Assembly: GCA_026625185.1 (NCBI GenBank)
Contig: CP113000.1
Span: forward strand, 525,622-557,621
Reading direction: 5' to 3'
Source: Thermodesulfobacteriota bacterium
GTDB lineage: Bacteria > Desulfobacterota > WTBG01 > JAGOGO01
DNA length: 32,000 nucleotides
A program made the translations under genes and the position numbers. Under the pieces are notes generated by a model that did no database searches, was not told the origin of the DNA, and worked only from the letters and a program-made list of their open reading frames with translations. Shown piece after piece: positions 7,734 to 31,181 of this stretch. The number at the start of each line of letters is the position of its first letter. The first letter of the stretch is position 1.

Positions 7734-7762
7734 ATTTTATCAGAAAAAAAATGAATCGTCAA
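7734..7762 (-). promoter_or_regulatory. sigma70-like promoter: TTGACG, 17-nt spacer, TAAAAT
   Basis: The minus strand reads TTGACG (7762-7757), attcattttttttctga (17 nt), TAAAAT (7739-7734), about 75 nt upstream of the ATG at 7657. The -35 hexamer lies in a flank that resembles the right terminus of the adjacent repeat. Confidence 0.45.
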
Positions 7763-7766
7763 ATTT

Positions 7767-8019
7767 GATGAATCCGTAAAAAGTCAAAAATCAGACGGCA
7801 CAGTAAAAAGCTTCAGATGCAAGGAGCGCAAATCCGACGGAATGAGGCGTACTTACCTGTACGCCGCAAATGATTCACCCCGTTAAATAAAGAATTTTCG
7901 GAGATCGGCAACTCAGAACCCGAAACCTTACGTTGGATTCTTTCTGCCTCCCGAAGCGAATATTTAACGGGGCAGGGATGCAGCGGAACGCCGCAGATGA
8001 ACTTTTTACGAAGCCGTCA
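7767..8019 (+). repeat. structured mosaic intergenic repeat, long copy 1 (253 bp)
   Basis: It starts GATGAATCCGTAAAAAGTCAAAAATCAGACGG and ends GATGAACTTTTTACGAAGCCGTCA. Its core modules are shared with 23322-23629 and 29371-29690: the GGCGTAC-ttacct-GTACGCC hairpin at 7846-7865, and the 11-bp stem CCCCGTTAAAT (7878-7888) pairing with ATTTAACGGGG (7962-7972). Its right end is 4 nt from the mutM stop codon. Confidence 0.85.
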
Positions 8020-8023
8020 AATT

Positions 8024-8866
8024 TCACTTTTGGCAGTGAGTACAGAAAGAAGCGCTTCGTCCCCCAACGCGCATACTTTTTATCGTTGTCCCGCAAGAGA
8101 AACAAGGTTTCCCTCGTCGCTGATAGACTTTAAGCTTTTTCTGAAATTTCCCCACCTTACCCAATCCATCCCGATAGCGTTTATCAGCTGCGGTAGTGCC
8201 CCGATTGTCAATAGCGTCTTTTAAGATTTTCCTGATCGAGCGGTGAAGACGTTTTATGTCATCCTCATCTAAAGTATTGGCAAGACGAGTAGGATGAATT
8301 TTCGCGTTAAAAAGGATTTCGTCGCTATAAATGTTCCCTATTCCCGCGATGCTTTTTTGATCCAGTAAAAGTGTTTTTATGACCCGCCGTGACTTTTGAA
8401 GGATGCGGGTAAGGCACGTTATGGAAAAGTCCTTTTCCAAAGGTTCCGGGCCCAAGCGGTCTAAAGTTAAGGGAGAAGATTGGAGAGAAGGAAGTTTAAG
8501 GAATATCTCACCAAATTTGCGAGGATCAATAAAACGAAGTTCTGTGCCGTTATTAAAATGAAAAACCGCTCGAGTATAGGGTTCGTAAGGGGTCCCCGTT
8601 TTTTTTAACCGCAACTGGCCGGACATCCCCAGGTGCATTACCAAACTTTTGGAAGGGATGAGGTAAAAAACCAAGTACTTAGCGCGTCGTCTAAGGAATT
8701 GAATCTTTGTTCCTTTGAGTTCCTTAATAAAATCCGGTGTGGAATGAAACCTGCGGAGAATTCTTATGTTTGAGTCAAGGGGGAAACTTACATTGGTTAT
8801 TATCTTACCAATTACCTTTGGAGCAAGATCATTTTTTATGGTTTCTATTTCGGGAAGCTCAGGCAT
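8024..8866 (-). CDS. mutM: formamidopyrimidine-DNA glycosylase (Fpg/MutM)
   Basis: 280 aa. It has the N-terminal MPELPEIE catalytic motif, an H2TH region, and a C-terminal zinc finger (CFSCG...FCTHCQK). Confidence 0.93.
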   Translation of the reverse strand: MPELPEIETIKNDLAPKVIGKIITNVSFPLDSNIRILRRFHSTPDFIKELKGTKIQFLRRRAKYLVFYLIPSKSLVMHLGMSGQLRLKKTGTPYEPYTRAVFHFNNGTELRFIDPRKFGEIFLKLPSLQSSPLTLDRLGPEPLEKDFSITCLTRILQKSRRVIKTLLLDQKSIAGIGNIYSDEILFNAKIHPTRLANTLDEDDIKRLHRSIRKILKDAIDNRGTTAADKRYRDGLGKVGKFQKKLKVYQRRGKPCFSCGTTIKSMRVGGRSASFCTHCQK

Positions 8867-23195: not shown

Positions 23196-23321
23196 GAAAA
23201 TGCTCCTTAATTTATAACCGCCATCACTAGCAAAACATCGCATGCTTTCGAAAAGCACATCCCTTTTAATAATATACTCATTTTATTCGAAAATAAAAAA
23301 TTTGCCTGGTTTGCAAAAAAT

Positions 23322-23629
23322 GATGAAGCCGTAAAAAGTCAAAATCAGACGGGACAGTAAAAAACTGCAGAAGCAAGGCGCGCAAATCCGACGGAATGAG
23401 GCGTACTTACCTGTACGCCGCAATGATTCACCCCGTTAAATAAAAATTGGAGATCGGCAACTAAGAACCCGGACCCTTACCTTGGCTTTTCTTCCTCCGG
23501 AAGCAAACATTTAACGGGGCAGGGGATGCAGCGCCTGTCCCCGTGCAACGCACAGGGGGCAACGCCGCAGATGGCGCGCTTCAGTTCTTTATCCCCCGCC
23601 GCAAGGCGGGACTTTTTACGAAGCCGTCA
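23322..23629 (+). repeat. structured mosaic intergenic repeat, long copy 2 (308 bp)
   Basis: Same termini as the other copies (GATGAAGCCGTAAAAAGTC ... GACTTTTTACGAAGCCGTCA). Its ~150-nt core differs from copy 3 at only 3 positions by my manual alignment. It carries two extra hairpin cassettes: CCCCGTGC-aac-GCACaGGGG (23539-23558) and CCCGCC-GCAA-GGCGGG (23595-23610, a GNRA tetraloop). Confidence 0.85.
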
Positions 23630-23869
23630 AAAATAACCGCCGCATTACCACAACCGGCTGGCCAGGTTCTCAAATCCTTGATGATCATTTTTTTACTTAA
23701 TCATAAAAATTCATCCTCTTGTTTTTTGGTTGAATCTGGTATAACTTTTATCCTTAAGTGAAAAAAGTGCCTCGCGGATAAGATGGTAAACAAAGCGGAT
23801 TACTCGCAATGCTATTTCTCACCTTCACAAAAAGAGGGTGTAATAATTTTAAAGAGGAGTCGGTATCGT

Positions 23870-28153: not shown

Positions 28154-28214
28154 ATCAATCCGTGTCTTGATAAATTTTATCAAGTGGACGTATTTATATA
28201 AAAATGTTTTTTGA

Positions 28215-28250
28215 CTGGCCCTCCCTGAAAAAGGAAGGACCAGTTTTTTT
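28215..28250 (+). terminator. rho-independent terminator of the aldolase gene
   Basis: CTGGCCCTCCC-tgaaaaa-GGAAGGACCAG is an 11-position stem with 2 mismatches, followed by T7. Confidence 0.65.
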
Positions 28251-28291
28251 ATAAACTCTGTATTACCGGTGGAATGAGGAAAAGCAATCTT

Positions 28292-28405
28292 GATGAATCC
28301 GTAAAAGTCGAAGGTGTCACCCTGAGCTTAGTTCACCCCGAGCTTGTCGAGGGGAAGGGTTAACATAAAAAAACCCACGAATTTTGATTTTTTACGAAGC
28401 CGCCA
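28292..28405 (+). repeat. short (114-bp) variant of the mosaic repeat: same termini, unrelated core
   Basis: It starts GATGAATCCGTAAAAGTC and ends GATTTTTTACGAAGCCGCCA. Its interior is a nested hairpin (ACCCTGAGCTTAGTTCACCCCGAGCTTGTCGAGGGGAAGGGT) that does not occur in the long copies. Its right end is 8 nt from the MscS-family gene stop codon. Confidence 0.7.
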
Positions 28406-28413
28406 GCCTTCGT

Positions 28414-29319
28414 TTATAAACCTGATGGCTTGTCCTTCGCTTGTATGACCACATTCAAGGGAGGCGCCTCGCTCTGTTTATCCTTTCCCAGGAATAAGGT
28501 TAGATGGGGGAAAGGGATCTCGATGTTTTTTTCATCAAATTTTATCTTAAGCCGTCGGTTAAATTCCCGAGCAACACGCCATTGTTTACCTGGCTTGGTT
28601 TTAGTGCGCGCCTTGATGATAACCGATGAGTCCCCGAATTTATCCAAACCAAAAATCTCAATCGGTTCGAAAATATCATCGTGATAGTCTGGATCAGAGC
28701 GAAGAGCTTCATCCACTCCCTTGATTACATCAAAGACCTCATCAACATCCTCACGATAGGCAATGCCGATTTCCAATAGAAAATAAGAATAATCCTTGGT
28801 CTTGTTGGTAACGAGGTTAATTTGCCCGTTAGGAATGTAATGGACATTGCCCGACATATCTCGGAGTATGGTCATTCGTAAATTGATCTTTTCCACCACC
28901 CCGTCTTTACCCGCAATTTCAATCACATCGCCCACGCGAATTTGATCTTCAAAGAGAATAAAAAAACCACTGATAAAATCCTTGACCAAACCTTGAGCGC
29001 CAATCCCAACCGACAACCCAACAACTCCCGCTGCGGTTAGCACCGGGCCGATGGCAATTCCCACCTCCCCCATAACCATAATAGTCGCAACAATAATGAT
29101 AATAATGTTGAAAAAATGCCGGATAACGGAACCCAGGGTTTCAGTCCGTTTTTGAAATTCAATATCGTCTTTGCGTCGCTGAACTACTGAAAATAAACGG
29201 CGTGCCAAGATCTTCGCCGCCTTAAGGGCAATGAGAGCTAAAACGATAATCAAAAGAATCCGTACCCCATGAGAAAGCAACCACGAAGAAATTTCTTTAA
29301 GATAAACATTAATATCCAT
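28414..29319 (-). CDS. MscS-family small-conductance mechanosensitive channel
   Basis: The track start at 29340 is a TTG. The ATG at 29319 has AAGGAG 6 nt upstream. About 301 aa with three N-terminal TM helices and the MscS beta-domain signature (RVGDVIEIAGKDGVVEKINLRMTILRDMSGNVHYIPNGQI). Confidence 0.9.
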   Translation of the reverse strand: MDINVYLKEISSWLLSHGVRILLIIVLALIALKAAKILARRLFSVVQRRKDDIEFQKRTETLGSVIRHFFNIIIIIVATIMVMGEVGIAIGPVLTAAGVVGLSVGIGAQGLVKDFISGFFILFEDQIRVGDVIEIAGKDGVVEKINLRMTILRDMSGNVHYIPNGQINLVTNKTKDYSYFLLEIGIAYREDVDEVFDVIKGVDEALRSDPDYHDDIFEPIEIFGLDKFGDSSVIIKARTKTKPGKQWRVAREFNRRLKIKFDEKNIEIPFPHLTLFLGKDKQSEAPPLNVVIQAKDKPSGL

Positions 29320-29370
29320 TCTTGACTCCTTGGCTCTCAAATATCAATAGAAAGAACTCATCTCGATCTT

Positions 29371-29690
29371 GATGAATCCGTAAAAAGTCAAAAATCAGAC
29401 GGCACAGCGGTAGGGACACGTTGCAACGTGTCCCTACATCAGATGCCTGTCTTCGATCGTTGCTCGGAGGCAAGGCGCGCCTGTCTTTGAGCTTCGCTCG
29501 GAGGCAAATCCGACGGAATGAGGCGTACTTTACCTGTACGCCGCAATGATTCACCCCGTTAAATAAAAATTGGAGATCGGCAACTAAGAACCCGAACCCT
29601 TACCTTGGCTTTTCTGCCTCCGGAAGCAAACATTTAACGGGGCAGGGGATGCAGCGGAACGCAGCAGATGAACTTTTTACGAAGCCGTCA
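29371..29690 (+). repeat. structured mosaic intergenic repeat, long copy 3 (320 bp)
   Basis: It has the same termini and core as the other long copies. It also contains a nested 28-bp perfect palindrome, GTAGGGACACGTTGCAACGTGTCCCTAC (29410-29437). A 29-nt unit is tandemly duplicated with a 34-nt period (29445-29473 and 29479-29507). Its last 3 nt (TCA) are the malQ stop codon on the other strand. Confidence 0.85.
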
Positions 29691-31181
29691 GGCCCGCCCG
29701 TAAATCTCCGTCATTTCCCGGAGACTTTTTGCCAGCGAAGGGTTTAAGTGATCCGGCAAGAGTTTCCATTCCCAGTTTCCGGTCAGCGTAGAGGGTGTAT
29801 TCATCCGCGCTTCTTCGTCTAAACCCAAAATATCCTGCATGGGGGTTATAATGGTATTTGCGGATGACATCATTAAAATACGAATCATTTCCCAGTTAAG
29901 CTCATTTATAGGAACTTCACGCCCTAAGTACTGGAACAACCTTTTTTTGTCTTCAGGTGTCGCTTCCGTGTCAAACCAACCTCGAATCGTATTGTTATCA
30001 TGAGTGCCGGTATAGGCAACACAGTTTTTGGGGAGGTTGTGGGGAATGTAAGGATTGAAGGGCAAATCGTCTCCAAAGGCAAAAAGAAGAATTTTCATGC
30101 CCGGAAACTCAAAGTAATTCATAACCTCCCTGACATCCGGAGTAATGATCCCGAGATCCTCAGCGATAATCGGCAGGCGCGCAAATTTTCTCGTTAACCG
30201 GGTAAAAAAATCCATTGCCGGAGCTTCCTCCCATCGCCCATTGACAGCGGTTTTTTCTTCCACCGGGATTTCCCAGTAACCTATAAAACCCCGGAAGTGA
30301 TCGATGCGAATAAAATCAAATTTTTTTAAATTATAGGCAATTCTCTCAATCCACCAGCCATACCCATTCCGCTTAAGCACGTCCCATTTATAAATCGGAT
30401 TACCCCAGCGCTGTCCCGTCTTACTAAAATAATCGGGAGGGACACCGGCAACAACCAAGGGCCGTTTGTTTTCGTCAAGTTTGAAAAATTCGGGATGGCT
30501 CCACACATCGACGCTGTCGTGTTGGACATAAATGGGAATATCACCAATAACCTGAACGTTCTTTTGGTAACAATATTCTTTGAGAGCGCTCCACTGTTTG
30601 GAAAAAATGTATTGGAGAAATTTTTCGCGATTAATGGTATCGATAAGTTCTTGTTGAGCTAATTGAAGAGCCGCAGGGTTTCTATCCCGCAGGTCTTGCG
30701 GCCACTCACTCCATGCCCTTCCCTCAAAATGTAATTTGAGCGCTGCGAAAAGAGAAAAGTCATTGAGCCACCGACTCTCCTGCGCACAAAATCGTTCGTA
30801 GTCATCATCACGTTTGGCTTTAAACCGTTCATAGGCTTTTTGAAAAAGGATTCCCTTAAAATCAATCACCCTTTGGTAGTCCACCGTATTTATCGGAAAA
30901 TCCGGCAAAGGCTCAAATTCAATCTTATCGAGCAATTCTTCCTTGACTAAAAGCGAAGGGCTTATCAATAAAGGATTACCCGCAAAAGCTGAGGTGCTGT
31001 GATAAGGAGAATTATAGTATATTGGCTCAGTGGGATTGAGGGGAAGGATCTGCCAGAAACTTTGTTTTGCTTCAACCAGAAAGTCGACAAAACCATACGC
31101 TTCGGGCCCCAGGTCGCCAATCCCAAAGGGAGAAGGAAGAGATGTTAGGTGAAGAAGAATTCCACTTCCGCGTCGCTTCAC
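29688..31181 (-). CDS. malQ: 4-alpha-glucanotransferase (amylomaltase, GH77)
   Basis: 497 aa with a GTG start. N-terminus is RGSGILLHLTSLPSPFGIGDLGPEAY. GH77 motifs present: QILPLNPT, SPYHSTSAFAGNPLLISP, IDHFRGF, IIAEDLG, YTGTHDN. Confidence 0.93.
   Translation of the reverse strand: MKRRGSGILLHLTSLPSPFGIGDLGPEAYGFVDFLVEAKQSFWQILPLNPTEPIYYNSPYHSTSAFAGNPLLISPSLLVKEELLDKIEFEPLPDFPINTVDYQRVIDFKGILFQKAYERFKAKRDDDYERFCAQESRWLNDFSLFAALKLHFEGRAWSEWPQDLRDRNPAALQLAQQELIDTINREKFLQYIFSKQWSALKEYCYQKNVQVIGDIPIYVQHDSVDVWSHPEFFKLDENKRPLVVAGVPPDYFSKTGQRWGNPIYKWDVLKRNGYGWWIERIAYNLKKFDFIRIDHFRGFIGYWEIPVEEKTAVNGRWEEAPAMDFFTRLTRKFARLPIIAEDLGIITPDVREVMNYFEFPGMKILLFAFGDDLPFNPYIPHNLPKNCVAYTGTHDNNTIRGWFDTEATPEDKKRLFQYLGREVPINELNWEMIRILMMSSANTIITPMQDILGLDEEARMNTPSTLTGNWEWKLLPDHLNPSLAKSLREMTEIYGRA

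Follow-up and report, generated by a model that had tools for sequence, protein, structure and literature searches.

The segment that separates malQ from the gene for an MscS-family channel in the window, by which we mean the whole stretch of 32,000 nucleotides analysed here, is a copy of a non-coding mobile element with inverted-repeat ends, i.e. a MITE, and this copy is fused to the malQ stop codon. Examination of the family to which it belongs showed that about 30% of the copies abut the stop codons of genes, in discrete registers that match the target motif of the element. We consider it probable that the family is a selfish MITE with a stop-like target and a self-repairing junction, for which no host function is needed, so that the bias toward stop codons would be mainly a by-product.

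The genome that contains the window (G000, one contig of 3.30 Mb) harbors, over its whole length, about 34 copies of the family, all of them short (44-391 nt, below ~500 bp). Matches are present in 38 of the 41 genomes of the class, G000 included, with 80-87% identity over the first 105 nt of the element in most of the sampled genomes. Within the genus, represented here also by the sister genomes G001, G002 and G003, occupancy is polymorphic, occupied and empty alleles both being present. The termini of the element, GATGAAGCCGTAAAAAGTC on the left and GACTTTTTACGAAGCCGTC on the right, are imperfect 19-nt inverted repeats in which the GA/TC tip and an 11-nt core are inverted and the middle 8-mer, GAAGCCGT, is direct. 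Since this direct 8-mer is common to both termini, slippage would delete the element and leave a 12-nt scar. Scars of 12 nt, GAGGAAGCCGTC and GAAGAAGCCGT, are found between both target duplicates at G000:C1:2452330-2452345 and 2521136-2521149, sites at which the sister genomes hold a full copy (compare L018:960-1125, L041:960-1112 and L025).

None of the copies, the longest included, carries an element-borne ORF. The longest relative (391 nt, L031) was examined as a candidate autonomous form and rejected, its contents being other repeats and no gene; a search of G000 for matching pairs of termini 0.5-6 kb apart yielded no autonomous partner, and an Rfam scan of the window produced no family that matches the MITE. 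By repeat search and alignment, three long copies and one short copy were found in the window, and with the boundaries refined, the claim of the initial annotation that a repeat is present here in four copies, three of them next to the stop codons of minus-strand genes, was confirmed (Table 1). Copy 3, the one between malQ and the MscS gene, has the ends GATGAATCC...GAAGCCGTC and consists of a 153-nt core, a nested second MITE and additional hairpin inserts. Short members of the family lack query positions 106-211, which is the nested-MITE part; the short copy of the window has the same termini as the rest of the family and a different interior. The composite of the 153-nt element and the nested MITE still transposes, as indicated by copies of 263-276 nt with perfect duplications in G002.

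Table 1. Copies of the MITE family in the window, their parts, and the genes and sites at the malQ-MscS locus (window positions).
Feature	Position	Strand	Description
Copy 1	7767..8018	+	252 nt; AAATTT duplicated at 7761-7766 and 8019-8024
Copy 2	23322..23628	+	307 nt, between divergent genes; AAAAAT duplicated at 23316-23321 and 23629-23634
Short copy	28292..28404	+	113 nt, between convergent deoC-family and MscS genes
MscS-family channel gene	28414..29319	-	Pfam PF00924, PF21082; ATG at 29319, stop TAA at 28414-28416
Native remainder of the malQ-MscS spacer	29320..29370	-	51 nt, contains the MscS ribosome-binding site; directly adjoins the malQ stop where the site is empty
Copy 3, element proper	29371..29689	+	319 nt, from the alignment of copies with refined boundaries; site empty in G001 and G003
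Left terminus of copy 3	29371..29389	+	GATGAATCCGTAAAAAGTC; inverted-repeat core CGTAAAAAGTC
Nested second MITE	29550..29648	+	ends CCCCGTTAAAT and ATTTAACGGGG; in long copies only, also inside copies 1 and 2
Right terminus of copy 3	29671..29689	+	GAACTTTTTACGAAGCCGTC; two frames have a stop when read inward on the minus strand, T-GA in one and TAA (CGTAA) in the other
Hybrid malQ stop TGA	29688..29690	-	T from the ancestral TAA (29690), GA from the last two bases of the element
malQ, 4-alpha-glucanotransferase (GH77)	29691..31181 (ORF with stop, 29688-31181)	-	Pfam PF02446, E = 9e-181

The Pfam matches bear out the gene names of the initial annotation, the neighbors of the copies being a GH77 4-alpha-glucanotransferase (malQ), an MscS-family channel and Fpg/MutM. 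Comparison of the orthologous malQ, mutM and mscS loci revealed alleles without the element at each of them. The malQ site is empty in G001 and G003, with a TAA stop that is followed by GATCGA and proteins that end in ...EIYGRA-stop and ...EIYGRT-stop, respectively, whereas the site is occupied in G000 and G002, which have the insertion in common. In G000, the protein also ends in ...EIYGRA, at a TGA that is the complement of T29688 and C29689, located in the element, and of A29690, located in the flank, so that the element gives two of the three bases of the stop. The combination of TAA in the empty sites and TGA in the occupied one with the same C-terminus indicates that the insertion split an ancestral TAA behind its T, ahead of the AA; it left the C-terminus of malQ unchanged. 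The initial annotation had the repeat donate the malQ stop and fill the entire malQ-MscS spacer. The former holds for two bases (GA), the third being the flanking A29690 (the ancestral T), and the latter for most of the spacer, namely, 317 of its 368 bases; the distance of 51 nt between the left end of the copy and the MscS ATG at 29319 was given correctly. In G002 (L001, G002:C21), malQ is frameshifted by a tandem duplication of 13 nt close to its end, and its ORF extends into the element by four codons, up to the TAA of the terminus (...GRDLSCLTAS-stop), i.e. the built-in second stop is in use in this genome. A target duplication is lacking at copy 3: the hexamers GATCTT and AAGCCC, which adjoin each other at the empty sites, lie on either side of the element where it is present. 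A pair of neighboring insertions with subsequent recombination was considered as the source of this arrangement but appears unlikely, as neither hexamer is a good target.

The MscS gene is preceded by a ribosome-binding site, GGAG, 7 nt upstream of its ATG. In the empty allele of G001, the malQ-MscS spacer is 63 nt in length and contains no visible promoter, so co-transcription of the two genes is likely both before and after the insertion; most likely, as far as can be judged from the sequence, the MscS gene is still read through from malQ, across copy 3. A promoter inside the element, which had been suggested as the other possible source of MscS expression, did not materialize: the scan detected none within copy 3, and its two promoter-like hits overlap the start codon.

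Perfect 6-bp direct repeats flank 12 copies in G000 and 23 copies in the sister genomes, and the hexamer is present once at the empty sites of copy 1, of the short copy and of at least eight copies in relatives. Together, these repeats and the single hexamers at the empty sites of the sisters imply a 6-bp target duplication upon insertion. The logo derived from 42 non-redundant insertion sites is YY-AANNTT-RR, and the same logo is obtained from the subset of 28 sites that are away from stop codons. The 6-bp length differs from the 2-3 bp duplication of the TA/TNA-type elements (IS630/Tc1, IS1031-group), and its occurrence at most copies of the family differs from the lack of target duplication in the IS200/IS605 or REP/RAYT type. 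Because the duplication ends with T, and the element starts with GA and ends with TC before the A of the duplication, every junction reads TGA inward; 12 nt into the MITE, CGTAA supplies a TAA as a further inward stop in another frame. Native stop codons match the target in two registers, that is, as a hybrid stop, in which the cut separates T from the last two stop bases, and 4-5 nt after TAA.

At the mutM/Fpg gene, the stop (8024-8026) is native, overlaps the last T of the copy 1 duplication by 1 nt and is 5 nt from the element. The MscS stop (28414-28416) is native as well and is 9 nt from the short copy; the adjacency of both copies to these stops had been recognized in the initial annotation, with gaps of 4 nt at mutM, where the flanking A had been counted in, and 8 nt at the MscS gene. 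The empty site of copy 1, cgtcAAATTTcac, occurs once in G002 and G003 and, on the gene strand, reads TGA-AAT-TTGACG, such that the hexamer shares one base with the stop and two bases with the -35-like TTGACG of the next gene (7762 to 7757, minus strand), which has a 2-nt overlap with the left duplicate. Thanks to the duplication, both the mutM stop and the -35-like box are intact. A strong promoter-like site, TTGACG-17-TAAAAT with a TG extension (window 7734-7762, minus strand), precedes a 126-aa gene here, and prior to the insertion, there were only 3 nt between the mutM stop and the -35-like box. The duplication of the short copy, AATCTT/AGCCTT, comes from AACCTT, which is found once in the empty site of G001. 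The convergent deoC-mscS spacer (window 28154-28413) is occupied by small repeats in G000, G002 and G003, three different ones in all, and G001 has none there (compare L073 in G002, L072 in G003 and L071 in G001), that is, this spacer is a hot spot of MITE insertion.

For almost every hybrid-stop copy whose duplication is usable, taking out the element together with one duplicate brings back a native stop (TAA, TAG or TGA) in the same codon position; examples are a gene that encodes a DnaJ domain, which gains one residue, and a purH-like gene. The stop of an MTHFR-family (metF-like) gene is a hybrid formed with a truncated 83-nt copy that has no usable duplication, and a ferredoxin-like gene starts 17 nt after this copy. 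At G000:C1:608017-608168 (and L029 in G002), a copy has inserted in the ATGAATAG overlap between the stop of one gene and the start of the next, where the duplicated ATGAAT yields TGA for the upstream gene and gives ATG back to the downstream MobA-like gene, both ORFs being intact after the insertion.

For the statistical assessment of the stop association, genes in G000 were called with a home-made dicodon model trained on the genome, after a codon-only model missed genes. The null comprised all 6-mer sites that do not break a gene, with hybrid-stop sites taken as harmless and with weights from the target logo. This motif-weighted null shows spikes at exactly two registers, the hybrid stop (1.9-2.2%) and 4-5 nt after the stop (~3.3%), compared to ~0.3% per position elsewhere, and amounts to 6.1% within -2 to 5 nt of a stop; its non-coding part is inflated because the dicodon calls miss some genes. 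In G000, 7 of the 34 copies form hybrid stops (2.2% expected, p = 9e-6), and 11 of the 34 (32%) are within -2 to 5 nt of a stop (6.1% expected, p = 3e-6), so the enrichment suspected from the window alone persists when the distances are tabulated for the entire genome against a null. A pooled set of ~100 copies (34 from G000, 31 non-orthologous ones from the genus and 35 from other families of the class), to which the uniform criterion of an ORF of at least 120 codons was applied, includes 15 hybrid stops (2.2% expected, p = 8e-9), 3 copies in which the gene stops at the terminus TAA and 27 copies within -2 to 8 nt of a stop (p = 3e-9). The stop-abutting rate, ~30%, is alike in G000, in the genus and in the other families of the class.

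As a control, the other intergenic repeats of G000 were clustered, and six unrelated MITE families obtained in this way were found within 12 nt of a stop in 4 of 61 cases, as opposed to 14 of 34 for the malQ-MscS family (Fisher p = 7e-5). Survival in safe places should affect all families alike and hence is not the main cause of the bias. Association with stops is seen also in an unrelated 130-nt family (representative, G000:C1:758706-758835), with 13 of 33 full-length copies on stops, 8 of these in register -5, and in a 105-nt family of G000 with ACCCCGTTAGA ends that is related to the nested MITE, with 4 of 13 copies on stops. By genomic context, the copies of the malQ-MscS family are not enriched in convergent spacers (2 of 34 vs ~10% expected), and tandem spacers of up to 62 nt contain 8 of the 34 (5% expected, p = 2e-4). 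The target motif predicts both of the discrete registers that are observed (-2 and +4/5) but not the full fivefold excess (~30% vs 6%). The residual excess could stem from a target preference that is richer than the position-independent model, from incomplete gene calls or from process-linked targeting.

The mechanism we favor for the malQ-MscS family is as follows. The element integrates into a palindromic AANNTT flanked by YY and RR, with duplication of the hexamer, and both junctions then read TGA inward, with the TAA of CGTAA in the other frame 12 nt further inside. Given that T followed by RR resembles a stop and that T before AA is TAA, stops fit this target in two registers, and the exact C-terminus is kept in both, the ancestral TAA of malQ having been split in the hybrid register. 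The stop bias would come mainly from the choice of target and the self-healing junction, strengthened by the loss of harmful insertions elsewhere, and no role of a terminator or regulator would be required. Among the possibilities raised in the initial annotation, insertion targeted to gene 3' ends is the one that fits best, given YY-AANNTT-RR; terminators, which had been named as the alternative target, are not what the element seeks.

Several findings go against this proposal, namely, the size of the excess over the motif-weighted null, the concentration in short tandem spacers, the lack of a duplication at copy 3, the negative search of G000 for a transposase partner, and the orientation of the copies, which for a palindromic target should be random. 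However, among the pooled stop-abutting copies, the right end points toward the stop in 22 cases and away from it in 8 (p = 0.016), and 27 of the 34 G000 copies (27:7, p = 8e-4) have an element strand that runs counter to the local GC-skew sign, although this assembly has a patchy skew, confounded with gene strand. In divergent and convergent spacers of G000, 9 of 10 copies are opposite to the skew sign, and all four left-end stop-abutting copies adjoin genes on the apparent lagging strand. The rule that transcription always enters the element at its right end, as initially formulated, applies to three of the three window copies concerned and weakens beyond them: for tandem contexts, the ratio is 16:8 in G000 and 11:11 in the genus, and the pooled value, 27:19, is not significant. 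In G000, the link of the element strand to GC skew is stronger than that to the direction of transcription (16:8). The dnaA gene (G000:C1:805-2115) is located at the contig start, with GC skew and gene-strand bias of the same sign on both sides; sign changes of the skew occur near 0.55-1.4 Mb and at 2.74 Mb. The dnaA origin was rejected as the basis for defining replichores because neither GC skew nor gene-strand bias switches there; with a patchy skew and no switch at dnaA, replication-linked and transcription-linked orientation are inseparable in G000.

Conceivably, although we believe this to be unlikely, the enzyme that moves the MITE actually seeks the stop codons of transcribed operons in one orientation with respect to the replication fork, so that the motif would act in combination with a strand-specific process. 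If this were the case, the insertion at stops would represent a safe-site strategy for a cut-and-duplicate element, with its own ends repairing the stop codon, and the post-stop hairpin may, in addition, tune the expression of the flanking genes.

Somewhat less probable still, in our assessment, is the co-option of the element as an RNA module that, when read from the right end, forms a hairpin after the stop followed by a U-rich tail, thereby stabilizing the upstream mRNA, attenuating read-through, or both, with selection then producing the stop-proximal, right-end-first pattern. Effects on mRNA stability are known for ERIC, REP and Correia repeats (PMC2229807, PMC3049150), and both the 22:8 orientation and the excess in short operon spacers would be expected under this scenario. 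The right-to-left RNA of canonical copies indeed contains a base stem, GACGGC.../...GCCGUC, and then the U-rich tail UGAUUUUYGACUUUUUAC, and the RNA of copy 3 folds better than shuffled sequences (z = -3.4), but fold energies show no consistent strand preference. Consensus folding of 42 canonical copies, from a gappy alignment, gave weak energies, with double changes in the base stem only (9 of the 42 copies), and this covariation could equally result from the presence of three copies of one protein-binding motif. The giant 3'-UTR stem-loop closed by the two termini that was initially envisaged had to be abandoned: the minimum-energy fold of copy 3 does not pair the termini with each other, and the partner of the right terminus in the fold of canonical copies is AGACGGCACAGTAAAAAGC, a subterminal repeat located 27 nt inward from the left end. 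Selection as a terminator, another of the early suggestions, fared no better. A scan of copy 3 on the minus (transcribed) strand detected no compact GC-rich hairpin with a U-tract, i.e. no canonical terminator; one weak terminator-like site straddles the left junction of the copy, and the CCCGCC-GCAA-GGCGGG-ACTTTTT module, an optional part found in other copies, points the other way. The full copy in the overlapping gene pair and the truncated copy in the metF-like operon argue against strong termination, which would be polar at the former and, at the latter, 17 nt before the next gene of the operon. Furthermore, occupancy within the genus is polymorphic, deletions have left 12-nt scars, and the interiors of the copies are freely invaded by other repeats, all of which speaks against a retained module. 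The analysis yielded no evidence of a terminator or promoter in the element.

Integration to gene ends that is guided not by sequence alone but by a cellular process, namely, target capture coupled to the replication fork or to transcription, has a small chance of being correct, smaller than that of the RNA module. Such guidance would account for the strand-specific orientation and for the excess in transcribed operon spacers, and it draws on the opposition to the GC skew sign in 27 of 34 copies and in 9 of the 10 located in divergent or convergent spacers, where no transcription rule applies, as well as on the fivefold excess over the motif null and the excess in short tandem spacers. The patchiness of the skew and its confounding with gene strand weaken this argument, orientation with respect to transcription is 11:11 in the sister genomes, the 6-bp duplication points to an ordinary staggered-cut transposase, and a search of G000 for a partner with matching ends yielded no enzyme. 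Finally, random insertion in non-coding DNA, with the post-stop copies surviving as the least harmful, is already disfavoured and appears very improbable, even though Croucher et al. account for the distribution of pneumococcal repeats in this manner (PMC3049150), copy 1 occupies a site where only 3 nt lay between the mutM stop and a -35-like box, and few copies are found within 17 nt of a start codon, given that the six other MITE families, comparable in size, are on stops in just 4 of 61 cases in G000, that convergent spacers are not enriched (2 of 34 vs ~10%) and that the registers (-2, +4/5) are discrete and fit the motif instead of forming a smooth gradient.

In these uncultured, sulfate-reducer-type genomes, the ends of genes are often the ends of repeats, for which the proposed target choice offers an explanation; the stops in question are real, and the proteins are not truncated. 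The combination of YY-AANNTT-RR with the T-GA junction is a simple, testable rule that can be used in the hunt for the transposase. The same-genome control indicates that the association with stops is specific to particular MITE families and does not reflect a general survival effect, a result relevant to the long-standing debate over whether repeats of this kind are parasitic or regulatory.

The closest published parallel to the malQ-MscS family is the BOX repeats of S. pneumoniae, where 36 genes have a repeat-encoded stop codon and show no clear truncation (PMC3049150). The BOX, RUP and SPRITE repeats are enriched downstream of genes, in an orientation that mirrors the coding/leading-strand bias (Croucher et al. 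2011, PMC3049150), and, like the present family, are small, non-coding, mobile-looking and co-transcribed with genes (PMC3049150). However, BOX has no sequence relation to the MITE family and is modular (boxA, boxB, boxC), and the pneumococcal repeats are enriched between convergent genes, unlike the malQ-MscS family (2 of 34). In addition, the target in our case contributes one base of the stop and the element contributes two, and the duplication is a defined 6-bp AANNTT. Correia/NEMIS elements of Neisseria and ERIC/IRU elements of enterobacteria share with the MITE family the inverted-repeat ends, target duplication and hairpin-forming transcripts (Delihas 2008, PMC2229807), as well as insertion beside or between genes and stops in many frames, but these elements duplicate TA and show no homology to it (PMC2229807); promoters, IHF sites and processing by RNase III or RNase E have been documented for them (PMC2229807). 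Stop codons in all frames and 3'-end fusions have been described for other bacterial MITEs as well (PMC2229807, PMC6382973).

A further resemblance is to the REP/BIME elements, which similarly place a stable hairpin a few bases past the stop, where a terminating ribosome would have to unwind it. According to what is said to have been reported by Liang, Rudd and Deutscher in 2015, an E. coli REP at most ~15 nt from the stop lowers translation via ribosome stalling. The REPs are mobilised by RAYT (HUH) enzymes and have no target duplication, in contrast to the 6-bp duplication seen here. What distinguishes the malQ-MscS family is the 6-bp palindromic target, the hybrid stop made of one plus two bases and the second register after TAA.
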